Below are positions 3,408 through 63,351 of a stretch of 64,000 bases of DNA, one piece after another. The DNA is from Psilocybe cubensis. Its lineage: Eukaryota. Position 1 is the first letter of the stretch. Every line of letters begins with the position of its first letter. The notes under the pieces are model-generated. The model made no database searches and was not told where the DNA came from. It worked only from the letters and a program-made list of their open reading frames with translations. Where the stretch lies: NCBI GenBank assembly GCA_017499595.2, contig CM039006.1, forward strand, positions 1,178,001-1,242,000, in the 5' to 3' direction. The position numbers and the translations under genes are program-made.

Positions 3408-6200
3408 ATGATGATGATGACGAGGATGATGTTGCCGATGTTGATGGTGGTGGTAATGTTGATGATGGGGGTAATGACGATGAAATAACTCAATAACGAC
3501 AGTGATAATGATAATGATAATGCTAGACCACTGGAATTTTATTTGTGGAGTGGTAGTGACTTGGGATTAACAAAAGTAAAAGTAAAAGTAAAAGGTGAAA
3601 AATAACACTTTGTGTCCGAATCCGACTCGGAGTCCATGACAAATGGAATGCGGGGTGCGGGGCCCGATTGTCATTGCGATAGTCGATGACTGTCACTCGC
3701 AAGAGGATAGACAGGACATGGACATAGCTGCTAACAGCTATAATATACAGCCCAAAACTTGGAATGACAATGGACATACTGTGTGGTATTAATACCGCAT
3801 ATGTAATTGTAAGTTTTTAACTCGAACACATGATGCCACTGATGTGATGCTGGAGAGTTGAGACGGGTGCGGTCACCGGTGTATAGTCGGAGGATGTATG
3901 TTAATGTCCAAATTTTCGTGCTTCAACTGGGCTGGGCTGGGATGGGATGGGGTGAGGGGTTTTGGTATTCTCTTTTCCTTTTTTTGCTCTCCTTTTTTCT
4001 GTTTTCTGTTTTCTGTTTCCCTTTTTTCTATTTTCTATTTTCTATTTTCTATTTTCTGTTTCCCTTTTTTCCCTTTTCTATTTTCCGTGTTCTTTTTTGT
4101 TTTCTATTTTCTATTTCCCCCTTTCCCTTTTCCCTTACCCTTTTCTGCTCTCTCCTTCCTCCTTTCCGTCGCGGTTTTCCGATTTCCGATTTCTTCGATG
4201 CTTTCTTGACACTTGCCTTCAGATTTGCTTTTAGCCTTATCAGTATCAGTATCGGGCTCAGGCTCACGCTGAACTTGATCACAATACATCACGATATACT
4301 TGTGCTTGTACTTTGTACTAGTACTACTTGTTACACTTGTTACCATTAGGCTAAGGCTCTGAATCCAAAGGACCAATGGACCAATAATCAATATCGGATA
4401 TCGGATATCCTCCCTCAGGCTCAATCCACCTCCATAATTATAAGCGCGATTCTAATTGGCCCGTGGGTACTACTAGCACTAGCACTAGGAGAACGATAAC
4501 AGCCGACTTTGGAATAAGTCAACTACACCAGCGCAAGCGCACGGGATTGAAGGGACTATATATATATATATATATGCGTGTGTGTATGTGAGCGCCGTGT
4601 GAGCGTGGCGGTGGCGGCGGCGCTACGAGCTACGAGCTACAACTGCAGCAGTGGGCGGCTGCGCGTCTACGTCGTTGGTGTCCATGTCTATATCGATGTC
4701 TACGTACAGTGTAACAGAAGTACTTAAATTGTGGTACCACCCACCACCCATAATGAGACTTTCCTACCTCGGAATCGTCTTCGGAATCGACGCGGCTTCG
4801 TTGAAAGAAAGAGGGTAACTATAAGTTACTATATGGCTGGTTATGGGCGCTAGATGCCAAGTCCAAGTTCATTTAAGCGTCCAAGTCCAAATTGCGCGTC
4901 GCGTCGCGTCGGATTTTTGTGTGCGTTTTGCGTACGTGCGGTCGCGTAATGGCGCTAGCATTTTTTTTTGGATTGGATGGTTAGACGATTATACGGTTAA
5001 AATTTTGATTGGACGGTTTGCGCGTTTCGTGTTGTGTTTCGGTTCCGGGGTGAGATGTGGGTCCTTTTTTTGCTTGCTATTAGTATTAGTCAAAGACTAA
5101 ACGGATGTGATGTGGATGTGATGTGGAGGCAGAGGCGGGCGTGGAGGTGGGGTCCAGACTTACGTAGACTGCGCGTCTTACAGTGTACTGACGGTACCGA
5201 CGGGATACGGGATGCAGGATGCGGGTGTTACGGCCAGAGCCAGAGCCAGAGCCAGGGCCATGAGGATGGGAGACTCGAGGTTGAACTTGGGCTTAGCGTT
5301 CGCGTTATGAACCGTGAACCGTTAGCTGTTAACTGTTAACCGTTAGCTGTTAAACGTTAAACGTTAGGCATTAACACGATCGATCGACGCGTTCGATGCG
5401 TTCGATGCGCATGTATGTACTAATACTACTTAAGTAAGTAGGGTTAACACGATCGACGCGTTGACGCGTCTTGCGCTATGTAGAATCTGGAGTCTGGAGT
5501 CTGAGACGCGTATTGCAATAAACTTTCCGAGCCACGGAATGGTCAGGGATGGGACGGGCCGAGGGACGGGGACGGGGGTGTATTTCATTCTATTTCATCC
5601 CATTGGCATCCTGGAGGCACCATCCTGGGAGCTAAGGAATCTGCTTCGAGTTCGAATTCGAGTTCGAGTTTGAATTGTTGTATGTTGTATGTTATAGGTA
5701 CCGTCGTTACTGTTGCGTGTAAATGTAAATGTAGTCAAGTGGTTATCTGGCTAGGTAGTACAGGGGCTCTAGCTGGCCTTAGCTGGCCTTAGCTGGCCTT
5801 AGCTGGCTCCAGTCTCAAGTCGCGAGTAGCGGAAGGTGCGACTGGCGCGTCGGTGCAAGTCGCGCACCGACCATTTCATTTCATTTTTCATTTTGTTTTA
5901 ATTTGACGTGCGGAGGTGAAGTTGAATTGGAATTTGGAATTTGGAATTTGGAATGCGCGTCGCGTCGCGTCGATCGTGTCGATCGCGTTGTGACGTGGGG
6001 TGTCGATCGCGTCGTTGGGTGTCGTGACGTGGGGTGTCGTGTCGTGGGGTGTCGTGTCGTGACGTGGGGGGCGCGTTGAGGGGCCATTGGCTGTCATTGG
6101 CCAAGCGGAGGGCTAGGCTAGGGAGGGATTAAAGGGTTAACGTTTAACGCTTAAGTTCATCATGGTTCATGGTTCATGGTTCATGGTTCATGGATTCACG
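3408..6200. repeat. Cluster of simple/short tandem repeats in a long non-coding tract
   Basis: (GAT/GATAAT)n at ~3408-3521; (TTTTCTA)n at ~4022-4115; (TA)n at 4557-4575; (AGCTGGCCTT)x3.7 at 5771-5807; (GGAATTT)n at ~5929-5954; (CATGGTT)x4 at 6161-6188. ORFs here are translations of the repeats. Confidence 0.85.
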
Positions 6201-7576: not shown

Positions 7577-10500
7577 ATGGATTCCCCCAACCCCTCCCCG
7601 CCCCATCCATCCAAACACCCAACAAAGCCCAAGTCCCCCTCCATCCTCTCCATCGACCTAGGCGACGACTACGACGACGGATACGCCAGCCCCGGAAAGG
7701 ACGTCCGCATCCAGCGCTGGCTCGAGCAACAGTGCCGCTTCGTCCTCGGCGTCGACATCGCCCCAGATCCCACCAGCGAAGAGGACCACTCCGACTCGAG
7801 CGACGACTCGAGCAGCACCGACGAGCGCCCTCGTATATCCAACGCGCGCGCCCCGCCCACACCGCCCTCGCCACCCTCATCCGACCGCGCAGACTCGCCC
7901 CTCCTAGGCTACCCCAGCCCCAGCCACCCGGACCTCTCCTCCCCTTCCCCCTCCCGCTCGCACTCCCCTTCCCCCTCGCCCCCCGCGTCCCACGCCCGCA
8001 CAGACTCGGACCCCATCTCCATCCCGTCCCACTCACACGACCTCCCATCCGGCGACATCCCGGACCCTTTGCGCTTCCCCGCCCCCAACTACGTCCGCGA
8101 GCTGCCCCTCGGTGACCCCTTTGCCTTTTCCCATCCCGGTCCAGACCCCAAGAAAACCAAGAACAAACGCAGGAAGGAAAAGAAGAAATCGAAGGAGAGC
8201 GTGGGCCTGCCCCAGTCAGCTGCAACTGAACCCATGGAAAAAGTTTGTCCTTTTTTGATTCTTATTCTATCCGTTTTGTTTTGGTTGCCGGTGGTTGAAT
8301 TCGGTTTTTAAATATTTTACTTACTTACTCTTTTTCTATTTCTTTCTTTTCTTGCGTGTTTTAGCCTTTACCGCCTCCACCGCCCGTCTCGCGCCCAGGC
8401 GCAGAGCCAGTTCTGCTGCCACTGCGCATCACTCCCTCATCATCACACCTTCTAAACCAACCCACAACACAACCACCATCCACAACAACAACAACAACGA
8501 TATCACCATCAGCGCCCACCCCCCTGATATACGCCCACGCTCCAGCGCGCTCCTCCTCCCTCGCACACATCCGCGCCCACGCTCAGGCGCAGGCGCTGAC
8601 GCCCACAGCCAGCTCGAGCTCTATCACCTCAACGCCCGAAACGAGCTTCACACTCCCATCCGCCATATCCACGTCCACGTCCATGTCCACCTCCGCCACG
8701 TCCGCGTCCCCCGTGCACTCGCCGCGCATCTCGCGTTCTGTGTCGTTTACAAACGCGAACGCGACTACTCCTGTGTCCGCGCCCGCGCCCGCCAAGAGCG
8801 TGAATCCAAAGCGGCATTCGCCGACACTCTCAACAGCATCCACGTCCTCCGCCTCGTCCTTCACCCACTCACACGGACACTCATACGGGCTGGGACACGG
8901 ACACGGGCACGGACAGGCGCAGCACGTATCAATGCCGGCGCACTCGTATTCCCATTCATCGTTATCCTCGCTCGCGCTCTCGCGCGCTACTTCGTTTTCA
9001 CCGCAACAGCAGTACCAGCAGCAGACGCATTCGGCTTCAGCTGCGTCGGCGTCTGCATCCAGCGCGGTTTCCCAACAGCAACAGCAGCAACAGCAACAGC
9101 AGAGGAGACATTCAACACAGGCTTCTATATCCAGCACGACGAGTACCAGCGCGGGTGCGGGTGTGAGTGCGGGTGTGGGTGTGGGTGGGCGCAAGTCGTA
9201 TTTGCCTCTTGGACCCGGACCTGCGCCTTCCCCTGTGCCGGGTTCTCTCCAACAACAACAACAACAACAGCAGCAGCAGCAGCAGGTCCAGCCGTACCCT
9301 TACCATCACGGACATGGGCATGGACGGACACCGTCGATGAAGTCCATGTCCATGTCGGGCTCGTCGTCGTCTGTGCTTTCTTTGGCTTCTGTGTCTTTGG
9401 CTGGTTCGGGGTTGGGATTGGGATTGGGGTTGGGGGTAGTGTCGAGGTATGTTGTTTCTTTGTTGCGTTTTTTGTTGAGTTTTTTGGTTTTGGGTTTGGT
9501 TTTTTGTGGTTTTGCCCTGTTTTTCCTTTCTTCCTTTCTCACTCTATTTTTTTTTTTTTTTTTTTGCACTGTTCTGTTCATTTTTTTGATTTATTGTTGG
9601 ATGGATGGATGGATGGATCCACCGTGACCATCCACCCCTGCGTCATTGGGATCTTCTTCACTGAGATCTTCGTCTTCTGTTCGCTTCGCTTACTGCGACG
9701 CGACTCGTCAAATTTTTTTTTTTTTTTTTTTGATTTGGTTGGACTTTTTTTTACTCGTATCTCGGGACGGAGGGTTTTTATCAAGTTCTTCCTGATCATC
9801 TTCTTTGGTTTTCGGTTTTGGTTTTCGGTTTTCGGTTTTCGGTTTTGGTCGTGTCCCTGCATTGGACTTGGACTTGGACTTGGGACTTGGACTTCCACCC
9901 GCGTTTAGCGTTTCGCTTCTACATCCCTGCATCTGCTTCTGCCTTTTGCATCCGCGTTTTTACTTTTTTCCCTTTTTCCCTTTTTCCCTTGTTGCTTCTG
10001 GTTCTGTTCTGGTTCTGGTGCGGATCATCCGTCCGTCATTCACTTCCATCCATCCATCATTATCATCCACTTGTTTCTTGTTTAGAAGTTGAACCTGACG
10101 CTAACGCTTAACAACTCTTTTTTTTCCCGTCGCTTCTTTTTTTTGCGACATAGCTCCAATGTGAATGTTCCCACCCCACACGCGAGCGGGACGTCGACTT
10201 CGAATGGGAATGTTACTCCGAGTCCGAGTTTGAGTAGGAGTCCGAGTTTCAGCGCTAGTGCGAACGGGGGTGGGAGTGCGAACGGGAGTTATAGTCGCAG
10301 TCCTACGCCCTCTGGATCCGGTTCCTCCGTTGCAGCAGTAGCAACAGCAGCAGCAGCAAGCGGCTCGCTTTCGAGACGGTCGTCGGTGTCGCAGCTCGTA
10401 GGCGTTGGGGCTGTACAGGCGTCGCATTCCATGTCGATTTCGCATTCGATCTCGCACCCTCACGCGTCGATGTCGCACCCGCATACGTCGATCTCGCACG

Positions 10501-13500
10501 CGCACTCGCTATCCCGCCGCCCAAGTCTACTGCGTCAGCCCTCCCTACCGCTCCTTGGTGAAGTCGGCGAGCCGCCGTCGCCGCTTCCTGAGGGTGTGGT
10601 TCCTGCTGCTTCTGCTTCCGCTGTTTCGTCGACTTCGTATGTCGCTGCTGCTGCTGCTGTGGGCGACGGTAAGGCCGAGGGCGTGGAGAGTACCCGGAAA
10701 GTGGAGGATGTGAATCAAGGGTTGGACTTGGAGATGGGCTTGGGCTTGGGTGGTCCGATTGACACGCTTGAGATTGCGCATAGTCCATTGTCGGCGGACG
10801 CTGCGGTGCCAGCTCCAGTTTCAGCTCCGGTACCTATTGCGCCCCAGCAACAACAGCAACAGAACCCGGCGTCACCTGTAATGGCGCTGTATCACCTTCC
10901 AACCGCGATGCAGCAGCTCAGGCGAAGCCAGTCGTTCCAGGTGCTCGAAGCTGCTTCTGCCGCTGCCGCTGCGTCTTCACCATCTACTACATCCGCCTCT
11001 GCCTCTGCTTCTTCCCCCGGATCTGCGTCCGCCTCCGCCTCAGCGTCTTCACCGTCCACTGCGGATCCACTGGTCGTCACCTCGCCCTTACCCCCAAACG
11101 CACCACCTACGCGCCGCCTCTCGCGCGCGTCGCGCGCTGGATCGATGTTGCTTGCGCTCACGCCCATTGTGACGACTACGACTACTACTACTGTTTCGAG
11201 TGTTTCTGCGGGTGAGGGGGGTGGGGAGTTGGCGGGTGGTGGGTCGGGTGTGGCGGGTATGTCGAGTAGTGTTGTGGCGGGTGGTGTTGTGGCAGGAGGA
11301 GTAGGAGTAGGAAGCACAGGAGCAGCGGGAGCAGGACACGCGCAGAAGCACTCTGTGTCGTCGTCTGTCTCGTCAGGTGCAGGTTCTGTGTCAGCTTCAG
11401 CTTCCGTTTCGGTGTCGAGAGATAGGAGCCGTGCGCGCTCGCGTGCTGGATCGATGAGTCTTGCTGCGAGCTTGGCGCAGAGCTCGTTGAGCTTGCACGA
11501 TCGTGCTATGAGCACCGGCGATGGTGGTTCTGGTGTAAGCGCAGGTGCAAGTGTGAGTGGAGCAGAGGGAGAGGGTGAAGGAAATGGAGAGGAAGAGGGG
11601 TACGGCGAAGATTGTGCGCGGAATGCGGTGTACATTGATTCGGAGGAGGTTAGAGAGAAGTTGGATGCGCTGTTGGCGAGGGTTATTGAGGAGGTTTCTG
11701 GTGTTGCTTCGGGTGCGGGTGTTGGTGTGGGTGAGAAAGAGAAAGAGAGAGAAAGAGAGAGGGAAAAGGAGAGGGAGAGGGAGAAGGAAGCTGAGCTCGT
11801 CGGCGCGTTGTTCCTCAATGGCTCAGGCGACGCCGAAACCAGCGCCGACGTCGACATGGATATGGATATGGACGAGGATCGGTATCGCGAGTCGATGCAT
11901 CTGCACGATGATGGAAGGGACATGACGTACATGTTCCCGTCCCCGCCTCAGAGCGCCAACACGAGCGAGTTCCGTCTTGCGTCTCTTGTGCGCGCCCAGC
12001 AGCAGCAACACCAGCAGCAGGGTGTCATGACCAGTGTGCCCATTGCGCCGGGTGAATATGCTGCTTCGGCGGCACCGGCGGGGATATATATGACACCCTC
12101 TGGATCTGCGTCGCAGGTGTACATTGGCCCAGGCGGTGCCGGTGCCGCGCCGCTGGCGTACACATCCTCTTACACGCACTCACACTCGCGCGACACGTCC
12201 CGCTCGTCGTCGTCGCACCAGCGGCGGTCCACGCACTCGCATTCGATGTCGGTCAGCAGGAGTGTAGTGCATTCGCGCGCGGGGTCACGGGATGTCGCGG
12301 GTACCGGGCCAGCGGTGACGATGATACCGGTGCCGATACCTGTTCTGTCGGATGTGGAAGGGACGAGCAGGAGGCCTGTAAGGCCGCCGCCTGCGCCGCC
12401 GCTTGATCTCAATCTCGGACTTGGATTGGGGATGGGGATGGAGATGGAGGGTATCGATGTGATGCCGGAGGAGGAGGAGGTGGTGGTGCTTGGAGGCGAG
12501 GAGGAGGATGCGCTGTTCCTGCGCGAGAGTTTGGCGGGGAGGATTAGTGTGGAGAGTCAGGAGATTGGAATGGATGAGGATATGCAGCGGGAGCGGGAGC
12601 GCGGGTATGGAGGGCGGATAGACGGTGGTGGTGTGGATGGGTACGGGTATGGGTATGGGTATACAGGGTTTGCTGGGGAGGAGGGAGAGGAGGAGGAGGA
12701 AGGTGATGAGCAGGCGGAGGAGAGGATGGCGTTTTTGAGGGGGTTGGGGCTTGAGGATCGCATGATAGAGTTCCCGGCTGTGGAGGCGTTGGCGGCGGCG
12801 AGCACGGGCGTGGTCGATGAGCTGGATGCAAGGCCGGAGCTGTCGCGCTCGATGTCGCGATGGAGTTTGACGTCGTCGACGATGGGCGATGATAACAACA
12901 ACAACAGCAACAGCAATCCACCCAAGGAGAAGCGCAAGAGCCTCGTTCCGTCTGCCAATGGCGACGCCGCTGGCGAGAAGAAGCGCGGACGCCTTGCCTC
13001 GCTCATATCGCGGTTCTCGGGCGTCGTTGCCCCGTCCAACACGCCGACGACGGAGGATATGCCCCCGCCTGTACCTGCGCTTCCGCTCTCGCCGCAGTCG
13101 GTCACCCACCCTTACCTGCAGTCGCAAATGTACGTCGCCGAGTCGCCTACCTCGCCTTCGCCGCCACTGCCTCCATTACCGTTCGAGGCTACCGCCAAAG
13201 CGCTGCCGCCGCTGGATATGAAGCTGACGCAGGTTGTGCCAGGAACGTGGGAAGCGCCGCAAAGGGTACCGCCGTCGAAGAGCGCGCCGAGCTCGCCTGT
13301 TAATTTGAGGCCGAGGGCGATGACGACTGGCACGGCTACCGCTAGCAACAACACATACACGCCCCGCGTCGTCATCCCTGCGCTCGCTCCTCCAAAGCCT
13401 GGATTCATCGATACTGAAAGCCCGATTGAGTCGTCGCCTGACACTGACAGCCCCGTGCAGCCTGCCGTGCCAAAAGTCATCATCCCTGTGCTCATGCCCA

Positions 13501-15443
13501 AGGGTATGCTGGATGACAGCCCTGTCGAGTCATCTCCTGTCGGCGGTGCCGCCCAGCAACCACAGTACGGGACGATGCGCGGGCGGTCGAGTTCGGCTGC
13601 GGATCTGCTTGGGTTCCAGGGTGCGAGTATGGCGCCTGGCAAGCGGCCGAGTGCGATGAACCGCCGCGTGCCTCCGCCGTTGCTCAAGTCGGCGTCGGCG
13701 TCCGTGTTGAGGTCGGTGCAGTCTGCTGGGCCGGCGAGGAGCTTTGGGAATAGGATTGTCTCCCCTGGACATTTGCAGACTCATCCGCCGTATGATGGCC
13801 TGAAGCGCTCGGATTATGCACATGGACAGGCGCTTAGGTATGCGCAGTTCTCGGGTGGTGGATCTGGGAGTGAGATTGGGTCTGTGCCGTTGACGCCCAT
13901 TTCGCTGTCGTCGACGGATGAGGGTGTAGGTGGAGAAGAAGAAGAGGAGGAGGAGGAAGATTACGGAGTGGTGCTCAAGCGAGAAAGGACACATGAGGAT
14001 AAATGGCAGCGTGTCATTGGCACCCAGGCGTCTGTCGCTTCGTTACCCCACGCACAGGCACAGGCTCAGGCTCAGTTCCAGCAACATCAGCAGCAGCAGC
14101 AGCAGCATCAACAGGCTGTTCAGAACGTGCTGATGGCTCTCGCACCCAGCACCTCGCCCACTGTGCAGCGGCACCGGCTCAAGAGCATGCCATCGCTCGT
14201 CAAAGTCTCGTCGTCCTCCTCGGCAAAGTCTCTGCATGGTGGGATTGATCTCGCCTCGCCCACGTTGCCGCCTGTGCCCTCGTCCCCCCCGCACGCGGCG
14301 AAGAAGGGCTTCCGTGGGTTCGTCCAGCGCATGGGGCTCGGCAGCAGCAGCAGCAGCAGCCATTCGGCCTCACACACCCATCTCCCGGCCATGAACAGTG
14401 CGTCGTCGTCGTCCTCGGCAGGCCTGAACGTGGCCATCCCGCACGCGGCGTCGCGCTCGCGTATCCTGCTTACAAGCTCGCCGTCGCCGACTCACTCCCC
14501 TACGCACTCTACGAGCGGGTCGCTGGACGAGTTTATCGCGATCGCACAGCCGCCTACGACGGCGTCGAGCCCGTTGGCAGTGTCGATGCAGATGCACTCG
14601 CCCTCGTCCGTGTCGCTGCTTCAGCAGCAGCAACCGCCGTATTCCGCGCATTCGTCGGTGTCGCATACGCCTCTGACGCCCTCGACCCCGCAGACGCCCT
14701 ATACGCCGTTGACGCCCCAGTCGCAGATGCAGATGCAGAGCGCTGGAGGTAGCAGTGGAGGACTGTTGTCGTCCCTTAACCTGGCCAAGAACAAGGGTCC
14801 CAAGAGGAAGCTGGTCATCAGCGGTGTGGCCATGGGCGACTCGAAGGCACTCGAAGCTGTACAGAGCTGGTGCGAGGTATGTGTTCTTTGTTGGTGTATC
14901 TAATGCTTCCGAGTGCTGACTTTGGTGTTTTTTTCTTTCTTCCTTGCAGTCCTTTGGCGAAGTGAGCAAGATAACCAGAGCGCCTAATGGCAGCTTGTAT
15001 GTCGACTTCAAAAAGGCCAGCGTCGCAGAGACGGTACGTTTATTTTGTCCATTTTTTTTTGTTTGCGTGTTATTTTCGTGTGGTAGTGGGAAGGATCTGA
15101 AGGGAAAAATGATGGACTACGAGGCCCAAGGGTTATATGCCTGGACTCATGCAGTCAATTGGGTTCTTCGGTCCTTGCTGCTGTTGTCTCCTTGACGTTT
15201 AGGCGGGGTGGATCTATCAATAGCCATTGTTCTGTCAACGGGGGGTCTCAGTACCTCTGATCGTCTTCTTGCTATTATTCTCCTTGGCCACACCTCAATC
15301 TATCTATCAATTATACTCATCTCCATTCGGGTTGCTGATTGACGACTTATCCCGTGTAGGTGTGCCGGATTCAAGCGCAGGTGAACATCAAGGGCGCAGG
15401 CAGCGTGTCCATTGGCTGGTGCACAAAAAAGCCTACGTTGTAA
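7577..15443 (+). CDS. Very large (~2212 aa) Ser/Pro/Gln/His/Ala-rich disordered protein with a C-terminal RRM-like domain
   Basis: In-frame exons with GT-AG boundaries: 7577-8242, 8365-9446, 10154-14876, 14950-15033, 15360-15443 (6639 nt). C-terminus: KRKLVISGVAMGDSKALEAVQSWCE|SFGEVSKITRAPNGSLYVDFKKASVAET|VCRIQAQVNIKGAGSVSIGWCTKKPTL*. The start codon is not certain. Confidence 0.75.
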
Positions 15444-52807: not shown

Positions 52808-53113
52808 TCTTCGGACCGAGTCATTATCTGCCAAACAAGAAAGGAATAGTCCAGGCGACTCGCTTCCGAAAGACAAAAAGACGAGTCAGCTCAATGGTGC
52901 GCGCCCATGTATAAATACTTAGGAAAACTTCAGGAAAAGACATCTCTGTAAACAATACTTTGAGCCTTGAGGTTCGAGTTAAACATAGATCGTCTCGCAT
53001 ACATCAAGATTTGTTTCAAGTTTTCGTTCGGCATTCTCGACGTTCAAAGATCAAGTTACTTCATCATTTACAAGACCTGAAAACGATTTATTATTACAGA
53101 ATAAGCAAAGACC

Positions 53114-53408
53114 ATGTCGTCCAAGACTCAAAACTCAGCAACTGACATTGAAAATGCACTGACCTTCCTCAATGTCGCGAAGGCAGAACTGCAAGACCAG
53201 CCAGAAATCTACGATAAATTTATAAAGCTAATGAAGACGTTTCACCAGAATCAGTGAGTGACTCGCAATAGCAGGCCCTCTGGCCGTTGCCTGCAACTAA
53301 AAAAATGTACCCAGGATTAGCGCGGAGGAAGTCACTCAGAGTGTCAGGGACCTATTTACAGGGTACCCATCCCTCATCGAGGGATTCGGGCAATTCTTGC
53401 CAAACTAA
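53114..53408 (+). CDS. Single PAH-domain microprotein (77 aa), Sin3 PAH1-like
   Basis: Exons 53114-53253 and 53315-53408: MSSKTQNSATDIENALTFLNVAKAELQDQPEIYDKFIKLMKTFHQNQ|ISAEEVTQSVRDLFTGYPSLIEGFGQFLPN*. TATAAATA at ~52910. Missed by the ORF track. Confidence 0.82.
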
Positions 53409-54273
53409 CCTAGCAGTTGCGAACGTAAACAGAATGTTCAATGCCAAAAAAAGTTTGACCAACATGGTCGTCCTGTGACAAGCTAATTGTGCTGTACTGA
53501 CATGTGATAATTCTGTCCGGTTAGAGCAGATACTGGACAATAAACCTGCAGTCTCACTTTATTTAAAATTTGAGAGCTGTCTCTTTCAGCGAGACAGCTC
53601 GCAGTTCCTTGAATGGTCAGAATATACGGTTAGAAACGAGTCCCTGTTTGAGCCGGAATTAGGTGGGAATATCAGTCCCCAACTTGAAGGAGTCAGCCGT
53701 GTAGCCGGGCTCTGGGAATCCCAATGAATACTCCCCATCTCAGGAAGACTCGGACATTTGGAGTGGGTGTAGTCGGTGGGAATACGCGCTGAACGGCCGG
53801 TTGTTTTAGGGTGTTTTCAGCTACTGGAAGCTTCGCGGTAACTCGCTGGCACGTATTCCACTTGGAGCATTGTCGAGGTAAACATGGAGCTTGCTCGCTA
53901 GTGGCAGCAGAGTACGGTACAAAGAACCAAAGTAACACTCTCGGGAGCCTATTCGTCATAATAGTGTCTCTGTCGAGTGAAATTCAACTAGTAATGCAAG
54001 ATGGAAAAAATGTTATCAAGTACAGATGAAAGTAAGTAGTAGCATTAACGTTGAGACTTGTGAACGTAAGCGATGAAATAGTAGAACAAAGAGAAGGAAA
54101 GTGGACTCTCCGAAGTAGAAAACAAGTGTTACATTAGGAATTACGAATAACAGCGAAGAACCAAGGAGACTGATGAAAGGTAAAAAACAAAAAGGGACAA
54201 ATTTTCACACTGGGTACCGAAGAACGAGAGGTGAATGTGCCGCTGATGATAGTGGGCATTAGGAACACGTCAG

Positions 54274-54958
54274 CTACGCCAACATGGGGTCTCCATCGCT
54301 CCCTATGATGTAGAGAAGACTATCAAGAAGGTCTGCTTGATTGGTTAACAAGGAAGTGAGCTTCCTCGTCGTGGTTTCCTAAAGTGTAAGATGGGTAGAT
54401 GGATGTTAGCCGAACACAAAACTAGAGAGGAACAACACCCAGACCTGGTCTACTTCACGATGATAGTGGGCAGACAGAATGGAGAACATATCGTCGTAAA
54501 CATTCTGCCCACAACGGCTCAGGACTTTCTCTGTGAGTCTGATGGTGCGGTACATGGTATCGAGCTTCTGTATTGTTGACGCTCTTGCATCGTTTCGTGT
54601 GGAAGTGCTGGCATCCATAGTGACACCTTCTGGAAGGAAGACATTGAATCGTTGGATAAGATCGCTATGTCCTTTTAGCATCTCGCGGATTCGTTTCAAA
54701 AGTATGTCGGTTGAAAATCTGGGGGTGTAGATTAGTAATGAATTCTGTCCAGGACGATGAGGATTGGACGTCGTAGGCGCACTCATTTTGATTCCACTGC
54801 CTCAGAGTCGACAGAAACTCATCATAGATCGCAGGCTGGTCGCTGAAGGCTCGTTTAACAGCGTCGAGATACGCGTTATAGTCGTCGCGGGCGACTGAAC
54901 TGTGGTTCAAGCCACCGACGGTAGCTTTCGGTTTCCGACCATGGGGTTCCATGGGCAT
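54274..54958 (-). CDS. Two-PAH-domain small protein (184 aa), Sin3 PAH1+PAH2-like
   Basis: Exons 54958-54783, 54718-54445, 54378-54274: YNAYLDAVKRAFSDQPAIYDEFLSTLRQWNQNE|FSTDILLKRIREMLKGHSDLIQRFNVFLPEG...RCGQNVYDDMFSILSAHYHREVDQ|ETTTRKLTSLLTNQADLL. Confidence 0.82.
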
Positions 54959-56169
54959 AGCTTGTGGAGTATACTAAGGAAAGGGGAGGAATTTTAGCTT
55001 GCAGAGGCGAATATGCCTACCAGGCCTATATGCTGTTCCGGTAATTGTAGTTCTAAGAGGGTCGCGCGAGAGGGGCGTCAATCGATTAACTTTATCTAGT
55101 CGGGCCGTAGACGATACGTGGGCAACTAAAAATAGACGGATTCGGTGCGCATGCCGATGTCCTACCGCATATTTCCGTGCTGCTTCTTCGGTTATTTATC
55201 CGATAAATAAGCACTGCACACCCGGTAGAGAGTATGAAGCCTACTGGATGAAAGTCAAGGGGTCCAACCAAGGTCGCTGGAGCTAGTGTTCTGCAGACCG
55301 AATCGTAGTGGGGTCTTGCTGAGTGAGATATTTTTATTTTTATGCAGTGGCAATCAGGCTGATAAAAGTGGATTGGTAACTCCGAGACAGAGGCTTAGTG
55401 CCATTTACAATTCAAGTTCATCATGTATCACATACATTTTATAAACACGTTCAGATTCAATCTAACTCCAGATAGTTTATACACTTTGCAGTGCTTGTGT
55501 ACTAGTTTGCATTGCAATCACCCCACTCTATTTTAATCTGTTGGGAGATTCAGGCTGCCGAGGTTGGAACTTGGTGGGGAGTTATAACTTGTATAAACCA
55601 TGTTCAAGTTTCGCTATATAATCAAGCGCCCATGACAGGAATGGTTACTAAGGAAGAATATTTGCATATATTCGTATTGGCGAACAGAAATCCAACCATC
55701 TTGCATCCCTCTGCATTTCTGCGATGCACGGACACTCACGGCATGAATTAAGCCCTTTAAGAATAGGGCATTTGTAACCTGACTTTAGAGCACTCGAAAT
55801 AAGCTTAGAAAGTGGATTGTGCACCCTTCCATAAGGAGTGATTGTATGTTTGCTGAGTGCAGGGTGTGATCTGTGCGATTTTTACTTATACTGCCTTGGG
55901 CCTGAAACATCAATACGGAGCAAACGAAAGGTAGACCTGGCATTTGAGCGAGCGGAATGATTTACTTAACTTATGGAAGTGGCTACTGGATGCTGTACTT
56001 TCCTGCAGAATACTGCCTAGAGTCGCTAATGGCGGCAGAGTAAGGGAGAACGCGTAGCCCCTATGAAGGGGTAGGCGGGCCGAGACATACACGTGATGAA
56101 TGATCGGTGCACAGACCTGGCCTGTGTTTTCATCAGAGGACCGTCACACCTGGCAGGACTACGCCGACA

Positions 56170-59100
56170 ATGGATCCAGACAGCAGCATGCCCATCGATT
56201 CTCCCGTCCCTGCTGTGCCTGTAACCCTGCCACCTCTCTCCGAGCTTGCTCCAGAGCCTGTAGAGCGGATAGTAACGCCCTTGGACCCGAAACCTGCGCA
56301 GTCTCTCGACACTCACCTCCCTCCAGTAGCAACCACTTCGCAGCGATCTCGCAGGGGTTCCCCGATGGACCCTCAGAGTTATTCCAACATTGACCGTCCC
56401 CTCAATGTCACCGACGCCCTGTCCTATTTGGATGCCGTCAAAATTCAGTTTCAGGACCAACCAGACGTCTATAACCACTTCCTTGACATCATGAAGGAAT
56501 TCAAAAACGAACAGTCCGTCTTCTTTTGTCACGCTTGACGCCGTGCTTTATTCTGACCTCGTTGCAGAATTGATACCCCGGGCGTAATAAAGCGTGTATC
56601 TCATCTTTTCAATGGCCACCCTATGCTTATCCAGGGCTTCAATACTTTCTTACCTGTTGGCTACCGCATCGAATGTTCAAAAGACCCATATGATCCTGGC
56701 TACATCACTGTTACAACGCCGAGCGGAACGACAATCCAAACCACGGGTAGCGGCTCAGGGAGACTATCGTGGTCAACCGCTCCTGCTGCACCAGTTCCTC
56801 GTCATGAGCTCGCTCCTGGTTTCAGTAGGCTTCCAGTTGTCAGCTCTTTCGTCCGCATCTAACCGTAGCGCGATTTCAGATACGCCTGGTGAACATAATG
56901 CTCCTATGCCCGTGGCGTCACCGGATCCGAGAACGTATGGAATGGATGGACAGGCCATCGAACCAGCGGTGCAGTACGTCCAGAAGATCAAACAGCGGTG
57001 TGACCCGGAGACCTATCGCCAATTCCTGGACATCCTTTCGCGGTATCACCACAAACCAGACACCATTGATGAGGTTCGTCGTCATTCCCATTTGTCCCGG
57101 ATGTTCGCATAATCACCATGCTACCTATCTTTGTACCCTTACAATCGGCACCTTTAGGAGGAAGTCTCCAAGCAGATTGCACGTCTATTCAAGGATGCCC
57201 CCGACCTCCGGGCAGATTTCCGTGTCTTTATGCCTGATCGAAGCCAACAGCTCATGGAAGACACAGCCACGACCTCTCTCTCACATGCACGTGACAGGGA
57301 GAAAACCCGCCGGACAGGGAAACTCGACTCTGTTGTGGGTTCAATGAGCAATCACCACAGTACCAGCAACGCACCTGTTGCCCTCCCTCAGAAACGGAAA
57401 CGAAAGCCGGCAGAGAAGGAGCGTGAAAGGGAGAAGGAGCCTACGCCCGTCAAGACTGTGGCACCCCCAGCCAAGGTACTGTCTTTCCTACCCTTTGTTC
57501 ACAGCCAACAGGACCGAGTCTTATCATGATTTTTGGTGATCAGAAAGCAAAACATGGCTCTTCAACGCAAGATGTTTTGCCTACGTCCTACCCCACTCCA
57601 AAACCCATCGCATCTGCACCTTCCTCTCCTCGTCGCTCATCCCACCAAGTGTTGCCTCCCCAAGAGGTTGCCCCACGAGCGCCTCCGGTCCACGACAAAA
57701 CCTTATTCTTTGATCGTGTCAAACGTGCCTTGGATAACCGAGACCTTTACAACGAATTCCTCAAATTGGCCAACTTGTTCGCTCATGACTATATCGATAC
57801 TGCCCGCCTTGTGAAAGAAAGCAGGAACTTCCTGGGAAATACCGAGCTGTACACACAGTTTAGGGAAATACTTGGATGGGACGATAAGAAAGAGCGAGAA
57901 CATTTTTTGTCCGAGCAGCATACCCAAAGTAATTGGGCTAAACCTGCTATCGCTGGGCTCCCGGAGAGGCCAGGTAGAATTGACTTAGGCGAGAAGTATG
58001 GGAGCTACAGGAGGGTGTCTGCCACGGTACGGTACACTCCCTTTCATTGATTTTTGATGTGCTTATATCTTCTCTTCCTTTTTCCTTTTCCAGGATGCGA
58101 ACGTGCCCTGTTCTGGACGAGATGACATGTGTCGCTCTGTCCTCAACGACGAGTGGGTGTCGCATCCAACTTGGACCAGTGAAGACTCCGGATTCATTTC
58201 ACAGCGAAAGAACATCTACGAAGAGGCGCTTCACCGAAGCGAAGAGGAGCGACACGAATACGACTTCCACATCGAAGCCATCGTCCGCACCATTGCGATG
58301 CTCGAACCTATCAACAACAAAATTGCCCAGATGAACCCAGATGACCGGGCGTCGTTCAAGCTAAAACCCAACCTCAATGGCACATGGAAGGCCATTCACC
58401 AGCGTGTGATAAAGAAGATCTATGGGCGTGAGGCGGGGCTTGATGTCATCGCGGCGATGCAGGAGACGCCTGCGGCTGCTATTCCAGTCGTGCTGCAGCG
58501 GCTGAAGCAAAAGGAAGAAGAGTGGAAGCGCGCGCAGCGGGAGTGGAACAAGGTCTGGCGTGATGTTGATGCGCGCAATTACGCCAAGAGTCTGGATTGC
58601 CAGGCGGTTATGTGGAAGGTGTCCGACAAGAAAGCCATCACCGTCAAGGCGTTTGTGAATCAGGTCGAGACTGCGCGGGAGGAGCAGCACGCTAAGCGTG
58701 CTGCGCTCATTGACCCACTATTTGCTCGCACTCGTCCGCGCTATCAACTTTCCTTTGAGATTGATGTGGATGAGGGAATTTTACAGGATGTCGTCAAGCT
58801 CACTTTTTCGTACCTTGACCGAACACAGGGCCAACTGTCGGCGGTTGAGCGGAAGCGAATCGAGAACTTTATGCGGGTGTTTGTCCCCCTGTTTTTCGTG
58901 ATTGGTTCTGTGGAGTTCAATGCAGGCCTGGTTCACCAGGAGACGGTTGTGGAGAGCGACGTAGAGGTGGGCAACAACGGGGTGCCCAGCGACGGTGAGG
59001 ACGTGGGTGAAGGCCCGTCGTCAACACCTCCGCCCCAGGCCCCCGTTGCGAAGGGACGAAACGGACGCAAGCACACTGCAAATGTGTCGTCTGGGGGCGA

Positions 59101-60608
59101 TCTGCGCAAGAAATTGCTCAAGAGCGAACAGGCGAAGATGACTAACCGCAAGACGCGGGGCGGCCCGTCTCCAGCCGTATCCCGGTTCGCTTCTCCCGCC
59201 GTCTTAGACGATGAGCGTGGGGTGGGCGGCGAGGCGATGTTCGTATTCCCTCCTGGTGCGGGCAAGCGGTCCTCCAAGTTTAATAACGTGTTCTTCACCA
59301 ATACCTCATTCTATGCCTTGATGAGGTTAATCGAGGTAAGTCCTATTCCGTGATTTCTTTGCTTGGCTACTTGCTCACATAGTTTTTTTTATAAGCTTTT
59401 ATATGCGCGATTGAAGGTGTTCAAGGGCATTGCCGCTGAGCTTGCTTCAAAGGACGAGTCATCGTCGAAGGGAAAGGCTAATGCGAACAATGCAGCAACA
59501 AAGGATAACAAGCACCACTACGAAATCTTGCTTGGACAGTGTGAGGCCTTATTCACAAACGAGCTTGAGCAACACGTGTTTGAGGATCAGACAAGGGCTG
59601 TCTTTGGATACAAGGTGATTTCCAATTATCATTTTTTTCTCCAGAACTTGGACGATTGACATTTTCTGTCTGACCAGGAGGCTTATAAGATCTTCACCGT
59701 CGATAAGGTCGTCAGTGCAATTATCAAGCAGGTAAATGAATGCTTTGAATATGTTATGAACGTAACCTGATATACATTACCAGGTCCAATCGATCATCTC
59801 GGACCCCAAGAGCCAAGAATTGCTTGAGCTTCTCAAGCGTGAGAGGTCGTTGAACTCACCCACAACTCAAGACAGAATCAACTACCGTCATCAAGCGGAA
59901 AATATTTTAGGACCCGATGAAAATGTTTTCCGCATCGACTGGGTATGCTTTTTATTAATAAACCTCGGATTACGGCGTCTAACACATTTTATCTGCTTTT
60001 CAAGCTATCTGAAAGCAAAACGATGACGATACAGCTTATTGGGAAGGATGACTCCATGTTTGACGATTCCGAGGCGCTGACAGGGAGGTGGCAGTCCTAT
60101 GTTGATGCTTTCGTCTCGGTACGATTTTTCCCGTGGCGCAAAATAGTTTCATCAGCGCTGATACCTTTGAATCTTAGGGAGATACGACTGAAGGGGTTCT
60201 ACAAAGTCGCGTCAAGAAACCGTACCTGCGAAGGTAATTACAATTCCCTAACAACAATTTACTTGGACCACGACTGACACAAAATGTTTGTACAGGAATC
60301 TCCCTTCTGCCGTGAAAGAGACCGTACCCGATGTTTCTTCACAAGACGGTTTAGAGATAAAAGTCTGCTTACGGACTTACAGATTGTTCTATGGCTCCCA
60401 TACAGAGGATATCATGTGGAAGTATCGGAGTAAGGATGAGGTAGAGAGGAATTCCGTGCAGTTGGCAGCTAGGAACGCCTTACGGAGGAAGTGGTTAGCC
60501 AATCTCAATTCCTCGAAAACAGATAGCGCAATTGTGGCTCCTGGTTCGAGCCCGAGTGAAGACGTTGCACTGCCGGTGGCAACGACTGAGACGACGACGA
60601 CGTCATAA
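56170..60608 (+). CDS. sin3: Sin3-family transcriptional corepressor (PAH1-3, HDAC-interacting domain, Sin3 C-terminal region)
   Basis: [124 protein letters not shown]. Confidence 0.95.
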
Positions 60609-61484
60609 CACAGCGTGTCTTGGATTAGTCGGCTCTGGCTTGACACAAAGATCTCTATTTATTTCTTTTTTTTCTTTCCTTCTCTCTATTTCTTTTTGCA
60701 TACGACTGCGTCCTGATCTTTATTTCCTTTGCTTTCGATCATTCATTCTCATCCTATTTGTTGTACCATGTATTTTATGTATCTTCTTAATTCCAATAAT
60801 GTCGAGTGGCTCCAAAGCTATATATTTGAAGTCTCGCGGCAGTCAGTGCATTTGTGCCGCAAATATCGAGTTCTGGTTTCAATCTACCACAGCTAATTCT
60901 TTCTTATTTCACTCCATATTCGTTCTGACAGCGGTAAGACGAATTGACGAAAATAAGATCGACAAACTTTCCAACTTTAATTTGCTCATATAGTGGGTGT
61001 GTCACATTGATTGATTGGTCGGACTTGCAGATGCATTGATTCCATTTAAACTGACGGCTCATTGGTATCGTCCTGGGTCCATGTTTAATGGGATCGGCTA
61101 TCCAGCCGGGTGAAAAATTCTGAGTTTGTCGGCTACACAAATGACACCTGGAGAGACGCCCATCACTCGCGATTGAGACAAGAGTAAGAACAATTCGTTC
61201 GGACAATCTTATCATGAACACAACTGAATACCTAGTGGCCAAAAATGAGAGTTGGAGAACTGGGGACGAGTAGATTTGGCGCTAACTTTGAGACCAAATC
61301 CAATTTATTTCAGGCATCATGTGCTGGGAAGTCGCATCGAGAGCAAAATCCGGTCAATCGAAACGACGGGTTGGGACTAGTTAGATTTTCTCACTGTGGT
61401 GCTCTCCAGTCGGATAAATAGGCAGGGAATTCGTCTAAGCCATACCATCCAACACCACCTAAATTGTCATCTCTCACACTCAAC

Positions 61485-63351
<1,867 letters not shown>

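Follow-up and report, generated by a model that had tools for sequence, protein, structure and literature searches.

Two small PAH-only genes beside SIN3 in Psilocybe cubensis, probably old partial copies of SIN3 with a putative role as client competitors or adaptors

The window analyzed here, a 64,000-nt stretch of Psilocybe cubensis contig CM039006.1 to which all positions refer, contains a SIN3 gene and, less than 3 kb from it, two small genes encoding paired amphipathic helix (PAH) domains. The SIN3 coding sequence (56170-60608, + strand), taken from spliced contigs, has 11 introns and encodes 1250 aa, with PAH1 at ~56404-56655, PAH2 at ~56957-57238, PAH3 within the exon 57544-58026 and the HDAC-interaction domain (HID; PF08295, Sin3_corepress, 127.2 bits) within the exon 58094-59335, all on the + strand. 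All 11 introns are skipped in the RNA contigs of X1 and X2, which are two runs of one study, and kept in those of X3 and X4. SIN3 is a scaffold that uses its PAH domains to deliver Rpd3-type deacetylases to genes; these domains bind the SID helices of repressors, and Rpd3/HDAC is recruited through the HID. In tblastn searches within the 64-kb window, PAH sequences were found only in the two small genes and the three SIN3 domains, and Pfam searches of ten long frames flanking the locus returned aldehyde dehydrogenase only.

The larger small gene, gene 2 (54274-54958, - strand), has three exons, two introns and a spliced translation of 184 aa (21.0 kDa). Exon 1 (54783-54958, ATG at 54958) encodes an N-terminal tail and helices 1-2 of PAH1, exon 2 (54445-54718) encodes PAH1 helices 3-4, a short linker and helices 1-2 of a PAH2-like domain, and exon 3 (54274-54378, stop included) encodes helices 3-4 of this diverged domain. 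Intron 1 (54719-54782; 64 nt, GTGCGC..CCCAG, phase 2) and intron 2 (54379-54444; 66 nt, GTCTGG..TTTAG, phase 0) are both removed exactly in the X1 and X2 contigs (joints 54718/54783 and 54377/54444, the latter with the cut at +1), whereas the contigs of X3 and X4 retain them. The spliced contig (53917-55050, - strand; record 1 of X1 and record 4 of X2) carries a 5'UTR of 92 nt without ATG and a 3'UTR of ~360 nt. Its ends and those of the divergent SIN3 contig delimit a spacer of 1,073 bp (55051-56123), which may act as a promoter region shared by both genes.

The smaller one, gene 1 (53114-53408, + strand), has a spliced translation of 77 aa (8.7 kDa). Exon 1 (53114-53253; codons 1-46 plus 2 nt) encodes PAH helices 1-2 and is identical to the corresponding public protein, the predicted intron (53254-53314; 61 nt, GTGAGT..CAG, phase 2) follows, and exon 2 (53315-53408, stop included) encodes helices 3-4. 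An in-frame stop lies four codons upstream of the ATG, and TATAAATA (52910-52917, + strand), 197 nt 5' of the ATG, is a possible TATA box judged from its letters. The X1 and X2 contigs do not cover 52951-53901 and are uninformative on gene 1 expression.

Both gene structures proposed in the original prediction, two intact spliced frames of 77 and 184 aa, were reproduced at their coordinates, and the splice junctions that it placed in gene 2 are those used in the RNA. The translations are identical, letter for letter, to the public P. cubensis proteins P0169 ("pst1", gene 1) and P0151 ("Sin3-like 2", gene 2); in a further entry, P0001 (also "Sin3-like 2"), the gene 2 protein is two residues shorter. 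The NCBI model begins at the second ATG (54952).

The claim that the two proteins consist of PAH domains only holds fully for gene 1 and for the N-terminal half of gene 2. At the Pfam gathering threshold of 21.3 bits, the PAH family (PF02671) was detected in P0169 over all 45 profile positions (56.2 bits) and in P0151 at aa 44-87 (42.0 bits); single exons gave 30.4 bits (gene 1 exon 2), 24.4 bits (gene 2 exon 2) and 15.4 bits (gene 1 exon 1, profile positions 1-15). Against PAH1, PAH2 and PAH3 profiles built for this analysis from 35 SIN3 proteins, gene 1 scored 77.9, 57.2 and 38.7 bits and the N-terminal half of gene 2 scored 72.9, 45.2 and 39.2 bits, and gene 1 matched SIN3 PAH1 with an E value of 2.9e-18. 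The AF2 model of gene 1 (mean pLDDT 82) has four helices (8-25, 30-44, 50-60 and 65-72) in the four-helix bundle fold of PAH, and matches yeast SIN3 PAH2-UME6 (6xaw; TM 0.83/0.92, rmsd 1.1 A) as well as mSin3B PAH1-REST (2czy). Four helices were also predicted for the N-terminal domain of gene 2 in a single-sequence AF2 model, whose top Foldseek matches were Sin3 PAH domains with a probability of 0.97-0.99 but an E value of 0.075, no match reaching E <= 0.001. The HID that defines a Sin3 co-repressor proper was found by Pfam in neither P0169 nor P0151, as had been predicted, so that the public names "pst1" and "Sin3-like 2" overstate what these proteins are.

The second PAH domain claimed for gene 2 is a different matter, since Pfam detected no PAH match in its C-terminal half and thus a single PAH in the whole protein. 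This half nevertheless scored 15.9 bits with the PAH2 profile, compared with 5.6 and 9.2 bits for PAH1 and PAH3, a value reached by 0 of 500 shuffled sequences (maximum 6.8). Apart from itself, its closest matches in a set of 169 proteins were the PAH2 domains of Crucibulum and P. cubensis SIN3, it shares the RC motif and the short loop of basidiomycete PAH2, and the RC...Y...ILS echo of SIN3 PAH2 noted earlier is real. In a tree it falls within the basidiomycete SIN3 PAH2 clade (98/98*), on a branch of 6.6. The single-sequence AF2 model, on the other hand, shows two long helices in place of a four-helix bundle. When P0001 residues 90-182 were modelled as a pair, the score was 0.77 versus 0.04 for the best of three controls, with at least 95% of contacts shared between the runs and a partner pLDDT of 82 or more. 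The mark used for such models was reached by 21/30 microbial proteins solved as one-chain pairs and 0/23 single chains, and by 17/29 pairs and 0/30 single chains in eukaryotes, although by only 1/7 eukaryotic proteins without an older solved relative. Pairing of the C-terminal half of gene 2 with itself as a homodimer is supported by the model. Apo mSin3A PAH2 self-associates in solution. In the literature on PAH2 homodimers, the case found has TGIF1, not PAH2, as the homodimer.

The clearest traces of descent from SIN3 are the introns. The phase-2 introns, whose first bases are 53254 in gene 1, 54782 in gene 2 and 56514 in SIN3 as originally reported, interrupt codons 47, 59 and 115, which occupy one column of an ungapped PAH1 alignment, and the phase-0 intron follows codon 150 in gene 2 and codon 265 in SIN3, at one profile position. 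Thus three of the three introns of the small genes share codon and phase with SIN3 introns 1 (gene 1 intron, gene 2 intron 1) and 3 (gene 2 intron 2). Together with the PAH1-then-PAH2 order kept in gene 2, the short distance to SIN3 and the position of the gene 2 C-domain in the PAH2 clade, this supports an origin by DNA-level duplication of part of SIN3, namely its 5' region, and genes 1 and 2 are very probably real PAH-only genes derived from SIN3.

Taken as a whole, the locus is best explained (probability roughly 0.6) by intact, old partial copies of SIN3 that are under purifying selection and likely act as competitors for, or adaptors of, SIN3 clients. Old duplications of the SIN3 5' end would have given rise to both genes, gene 2 as an inverted duplicate in which PAH1 and PAH2 persisted while the linker and, with it, SIN3 intron 2 were lost, and gene 1 as a copy that kept PAH1 alone, and purifying selection would have held both. 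Their PAH1 four-helix modules may dock the amphipathic SID helices of DNA-binding regulators and, because neither protein has an HID, such binding could not bring in Rpd3; competition with SIN3 would then relieve repression, or clients would be re-routed. With its second domain far drifted from PAH2 and predicted to pair with itself, gene 2 could form a two-headed PAH1 adaptor. The competitor or adaptor mode of action, taken by itself, is put forward tentatively, at somewhat less than even odds.

A rather unlikely alternative is that both proteins, although derived from SIN3, are not decoys and have acquired new functions as small alpha-alpha-hub proteins whose clefts bind changed partners in processes unrelated to SIN3 clients. 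Such a change would be consistent with a PAH1 identity to SIN3 of only 41-42%, with the helix 2-helix 3 loop, conserved in 35 SIN3 PAH1 domains but replaced in both genes, with changes in 17/47 (gene 1) and 11/47 (gene 2) of the columns conserved in these domains (30/47 and 36/47 being kept at class level), and with the remodelled, presumably self-associating C-terminal half of gene 2. However, helices 1-2, where the PAH1 cleft is located (PMC13068551), largely retain their hydrophobic pattern, and no positive evidence points to another partner.

It is very unlikely that the genes are transcribed relics, namely functionless SIN3 fragments on their way to decay. The sub-threshold PAH2 of gene 2 would fit this, as would the outcome of the searches for relatives. 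Word-based searches of 5.8 billion proteins with gene 2 exon 2, P0001 and gene 1 exon 1 recovered only the P. cubensis protein itself, and phmmer against 1.84 billion representatives listed, as its best non-self matches, sequences of 26-42% identity that were not fungal orthologues. The named ones among twenty further matches of this search came from plants, early-diverging fungi, a cryptophyte, an amoeba and a fluke, together with Crucibulum SIN3 and the Mycena gene model. Metagenome scans gave 70 pattern matches for P0001 and 593 for P0169, none of which was confirmed. No orthologue of either gene was thus found in the protein or metagenome searches, which is unexpected for copies of this age, except if annotation is missing elsewhere, the genes evolve fast or their occurrence is limited to a narrow lineage. 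Against decay, synonymous sites of the three PAH1 pairs (66 codons) are saturated (pS 0.83-0.94) and pN is about half as high (0.36-0.45), so that the copies are old and constrained rather than recent or decaying. In spite of this divergence, neither frame is disrupted, the six splice sites are all in place and the PAH signature is retained, which bears out the earlier description of strongly diverged genes without stops or frameshifts; furthermore, gene 2 is correctly spliced and its exonic strain differences are synonymous in two of two cases, a very small sample.

The PAH1 tree, which is unresolved, provides less support for a local origin, as neither gene joins agaric SIN3 PAH1 in it. Holding gene 2 PAH1 with agaric SIN3 PAH1 costs 10.5 lnL (AU p 0.039, a marginal rejection), holding both genes there gives p 0.0497, and the placement of gene 1 alone is not rejected (p 0.34). 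The original view of a local SIN3 duplication is hence backed by introns, domain order, proximity and the C-domain clade, but not by this tree. An older, independent PAH-only family that lies next to SIN3 by coincidence is highly improbable, because the grouping of gene 2 PAH1 with small Arabidopsis PAH proteins (85/71), which would favor it along with the small plant PAH proteins among the nearest Atlas clusters, involves branches of 1.2-6.6 changes per column on which attraction is likely, and the shared introns and the features of the gene 2 C-domain point to the adjoining SIN3. These Atlas clusters, of ~103 aa (411 members) and ~160 aa (59 members), consist mostly of Streptophyta proteins; a 126-aa cluster from Ascomycota, 20% of whose members have PAH (score 0.88), was also seen and is a lead only.

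PAH-only proteins as such are already known, and both genes were already public gene models, so the arrangement is less novel than first supposed. In mouse, SIN3B(293), the SIN3B short form, contains only PAH1 and PAH2; lacking the HID, it does not bind histone deacetylases (PMC5902990, PMC4914931). Its domain content matches that proposed for gene 2. However, SIN3B(293) arises by alternative splicing of Sin3b, whereas gene 2 is a separate, inverted gene on the opposite strand from SIN3 with its own spliced transcript, is only 41% identical to SIN3 PAH1 and has a barely recognizable PAH2. Small proteins made up solely of one to three PAH domains are frequent in plants and are encoded there, as in P. 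cubensis, by separate genes. Examples are models of 160-209 aa from Trifolium and Linum and the Arabidopsis cluster of P0022 (234-245 aa), named "Paired amphipathic helix (PAH2) superfamily protein". These are 33-42% identical to gene 2 and belong to plant lineages, and presumably stem from independent duplications; no functional study of them was found in a literature search in which the brackets in the name may have hidden matches. The agaric model KAJ7654719 of Mycena rosella ("paired amphipathic helix", P0122, 215 aa) likewise has only SIN3-derived PAH1-type domains, but in two tandem copies. These share 54% identity with P. cubensis SIN3 but only 34-38% with genes 1 and 2, which suggests a more recent, separate event, or else truncation of the gene model. 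Literature searches found no paper linking paired amphipathic helix to Psilocybe and nothing on partial duplication of Sin3 PAH in fungi, and a broad search on Sin3 in mushrooms gave nothing relevant.

MicroProteins are defined as small (<20 kDa) single-domain relatives of larger multidomain proteins that keep only the protein-protein interaction domain (PMC5381583, PMC7534434, PMC9638782). By this definition gene 1, with its single PAH, fits in size and domain content, whereas gene 2, with two PAH-like domains, is borderline and strictly outside; the dominant-negative action that also defines microProteins, by which targets end up in non-productive complexes, is for both only putative. The main text of the miPFinder paper does not mention PAH. 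To our knowledge, what docks on a PAH domain is a peptide of another protein, and no pairing with the parent protein takes place; interference would thus occur by competition for clients rather than by heterodimers with SIN3. A more specific and bolder proposal, which we regard as unlikely in its entirety, is that the gene 2 protein is homodimeric and two-headed, with PAH1 domains as the heads and no HDAC recruitment, its PAH2 having turned into a self-pairing module, and that gene 2, transcribed divergently from the 1.07-kb region that SIN3 also uses, serves as a built-in, lineage-restricted antagonist or cross-linker of SIN3 clients and as the separate-gene counterpart of the mouse SIN3B short isoform, with gene 1 as a monovalent competitor.

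As it stands, the locus holds a well-supported, auto-annotated and misleadingly named pair of gene models whose function is putative. With free-standing PAH modules encoded beside SIN3, the fungus could titrate or redirect deacetylase recruitment by simple means; the mouse SIN3B short isoform follows the same logic, which would here be fixed in separate genes. Should psilocybin mushrooms or other agarics turn out to conserve orthologues, these would provide a tractable handle on the chromatin control of development or secondary metabolism.

Two small, intact, spliced open reading frames adjoin SIN3 in this part of the Psilocybe cubensis genome, and this observation proved correct. Their spliced translations are identical to public P. 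cubensis proteins. Gene 1 runs on the forward strand from an ATG at 53114 to the end of its stop codon at 53408, encodes 77 aa, is preceded by an in-frame stop four codons 5' of the ATG, and has one intron (53254-53314, +; 61 nt, GTGAGT..CAG). Gene 2 lies on the reverse strand (ATG at 54958, end of the stop codon at 54274; 184 aa) and has introns at 54782-54719 and 54444-54379 (-). The SIN3 coding sequence (56170-60608, +; 11 introns, 1250 aa) starts 1.2 kb from gene 2 and specifies three paired-amphipathic-helix domains (PAH1-3) plus an HDAC-interaction domain (HID; PF08295, 127 bits). Both small genes are already in the public annotation: gene 1 as P0169 (77 aa, 'Paired amphipathic helix protein pst1'), and gene 2 as P0001 (182 aa, 'Paired amphipathic helix protein Sin3-like 2'), a model beginning at the second ATG, and as P0151 (184 aa, UniRef 'uncharacterized protein'). 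The NCBI accessions of the two small-gene proteins are consecutive, in agreement with their adjacency, and the public names overstate both proteins. Directly 3' of SIN3, an aldehyde dehydrogenase exon was found (61422-61940, +; Pfam Aldedh, 74.1 bits). Elsewhere in the window, 10086-14903 (+) contains 1,605 codons without a stop at a G+C content of 0.59-0.62 (about 0.44 around it); this frame, which is rich in Ser, Ala, Gly and Pro and matches no Pfam family, probably encodes a large disordered protein from one exon. A T-rich tandem repeat with periods of 7, 14 and 43 nt occupies 3995-4116.

The proposed PAH-only content of the two proteins was borne out for gene 1 and for the N-terminal half of gene 2. 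Gene 1 is a complete PAH domain (Pfam 56.2 bits, gathering score 21.3) that strongly matches solved PAH1 and PAH2 domains of SIN3, and its AF2 model is a four-helix structure (pLDDT 82) that superposes on yeast SIN3 PAH2-UME6 (TM 0.83/0.92, rmsd 1.1 A) and also on mSin3B PAH1-REST. In gene 2, the Pfam PAH profile matched once (aa 44-87, 42.0 bits) and Pfam gave nothing beyond this domain, so the claimed second PAH lacks a Pfam match; no HID was detected by Pfam in either protein. Domain-specific profiles were built from 35 SIN3 proteins out of 67 full-length matches of a phmmer search, namely those showing the PAH1-PAH2-PAH3 order (33 others without it were left out), and the best profile was PAH1 for both gene 1 (77.9 bits) and the N-terminal half of gene 2 (72.9 bits). 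The C-terminal half of gene 2 (aa 97-184) scored 15.9 bits with PAH2 versus 5.6 with PAH1 and 9.2 with PAH3, and none of 500 shuffles exceeded 6.8 with the PAH2 profile; judged by this score, the second domain appears to be a real, very diverged PAH2 relative. In the single-sequence AF2 model of gene 2, this half consists of two long helices (96-142 and 148-175) with no four-helix bundle, and for that gene 2 model PAH domains were matched by Foldseek only at E 0.075.

There is good support for a derivation of the small genes from SIN3. Gene 1 is 42% identical to SIN3 PAH1 over 66 aa and gene 2 is 41% identical to it over 71 aa, with 35% identity between the two small genes. As claimed, the phase-2 PAH1 intron is shared, since the codons that it splits (47, 59 and 115 in gene 1, gene 2 and SIN3, respectively) fall in one column of an ungapped alignment, and the phase-0 PAH2 intron, after codon 150 of gene 2 and codon 265 of SIN3, occupies the same profile position. 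Thus, all three small-gene introns correspond to SIN3 introns 1 and 3, which indicates duplication of genomic DNA and counters an origin as retrocopies; SIN3 intron 2 sits in the PAH1-PAH2 linker, which is far shorter in gene 2. One of the two copies is inverted relative to SIN3.

Partial duplication of SIN3 is also supported by the placement of the gene 2 C-terminal domain, which lies inside the basidiomycete SIN3 PAH2 clade (98/98* support), though its branch is long at 6.6 changes per column. When 169 proteins were compared, the non-self sequences closest to this domain were PAH2 of Crucibulum SIN3 and of P. cubensis SIN3, and it has agaric-type PAH2 features (RC motif, shorter helix 1-2 loop, ILS..H), the RC...Y...ILS echo of SIN3 PAH2 that was originally noted being real. 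The phylogeny was less favorable to the PAH1 domains, both of which fell within the PAH1 clade at no resolved position and not with agaric SIN3 PAH1, the one of gene 2 joining small Arabidopsis proteins (85/71). In AU tests, placement with agaric PAH1 gave p 0.34 for gene 1, 0.039 for gene 2 and 0.0497 for both. Because the tree has only 84 columns and long branches (six Nannochloropsis domains were left out), it is read as unresolved and, as far as these sequences go, mildly adverse to such a grouping.

Synonymous sites are saturated in all three PAH1 pairs among gene 1, gene 2 and SIN3 (pS 0.83-0.94 over 66 codons; pN 0.36-0.45); the duplications are therefore old. The genes are strongly diverged and free of stops or frameshifts, as originally noted, and the persistence of open frames, all six splice sites and a significant PAH signature over so long a time argues for purifying selection, although each path runs partly along the constrained SIN3 lineage and the comparison is not a clean branch test. 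Gene 1 has kept 30 and gene 2 36 of the 47 conserved SIN3 PAH1 columns, the main loss being in the helix 2-3 loop.

Contigs of four P. cubensis sequencing runs were placed on the window, two of them (X1 and X2) from one study whose RNA label is only guessed. Their contigs omit all 11 SIN3 introns and both gene 2 introns at GT..AG ends and are therefore spliced RNA, confirming, within that study, the predicted gene 2 junctions; the gene 2 contig (53917-55050) has a 92-nt leader without ATG. In contigs of X3 and X4, which are DNA runs, the introns are retained. Other-strain contigs contain both genes, and the sole exonic differences (54830 and 54872) are synonymous. The X3 and X4 strains also lack 43 bp (55502-55544) in the gene 2-SIN3 spacer and have a 6-bp insertion after 53916, at the distal end of the gene 2 transcript. 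Their contigs carry other sequence 5' of 52808, which suggests a structural strain difference about 300 bp 5' of the gene 1 ATG; this break is 100 bp upstream of a possible TATA box, TATAAATA (52910..52917, +), itself 197 nt 5' of that ATG.

Protein and metagenome searches found no orthologues of either gene: word-based protein searches returned self only, and metagenome scans with both small proteins gave no confirmed match. Exhaustive phmmer against 50%-identity representatives yielded 1852 matches at E <= 0.001, the best non-self ones being 26-42% identical among the matches listed. Named short matches were small PAH-only proteins from plants and one cryptophyte, and the neighbors in the Atlas were large clusters of plant proteins about 100-160 aa long. 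P0122, a 215-aa gene model of the agaric Mycena rosella, has two PAH1 copies in tandem, with 54% identity to P. cubensis SIN3, and is either a truncated model or a separate, younger duplication of part of SIN3. The 190-aa metagenome protein P0072 and its three cluster mates are PAH1+PAH2-only proteins laid out as gene 2, to which P0072 is 33% identical over 150 aa. No literature on such genes in fungi was found among the main texts searched. The suggestion that the arrangement is undescribed holds to that extent, but the gene models are public and PAH-only proteins are already known, as a kind in plants and as an isoform in mouse.

Modelling of gene 2 residues 90-182 as a pair of identical chains gave a score of 0.77 versus 0.04 for the best of three controls, by a measure whose mark was reached by 21/30 solved one-chain pairs and 0/23 single chains (in eukaryotes, 17/29 versus 0/30, but just 1/7 where no older relative had been solved). 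Agreement between runs was at least 95% of contacts, with partner pLDDT of at least 82, and the interface is symmetric (residues 102-119, 134-142, 148-152 and 172-175). This model supports the view that the one-time PAH2 of gene 2 may now be a self-pairing module. Amphipathic SID helices are bound by PAH domains in a hydrophobic cleft situated, for PAH1, mainly between helices 1 and 2 (PMC13068551), and mouse SIN3B(293), with only PAH1 and PAH2 and without the HID, does not bind deacetylases (PMC5902990; PMC4914931). Both P. cubensis proteins might dock SID-bearing regulators without bringing Rpd3, and would thereby compete with SIN3 or re-route SIN3 clients.
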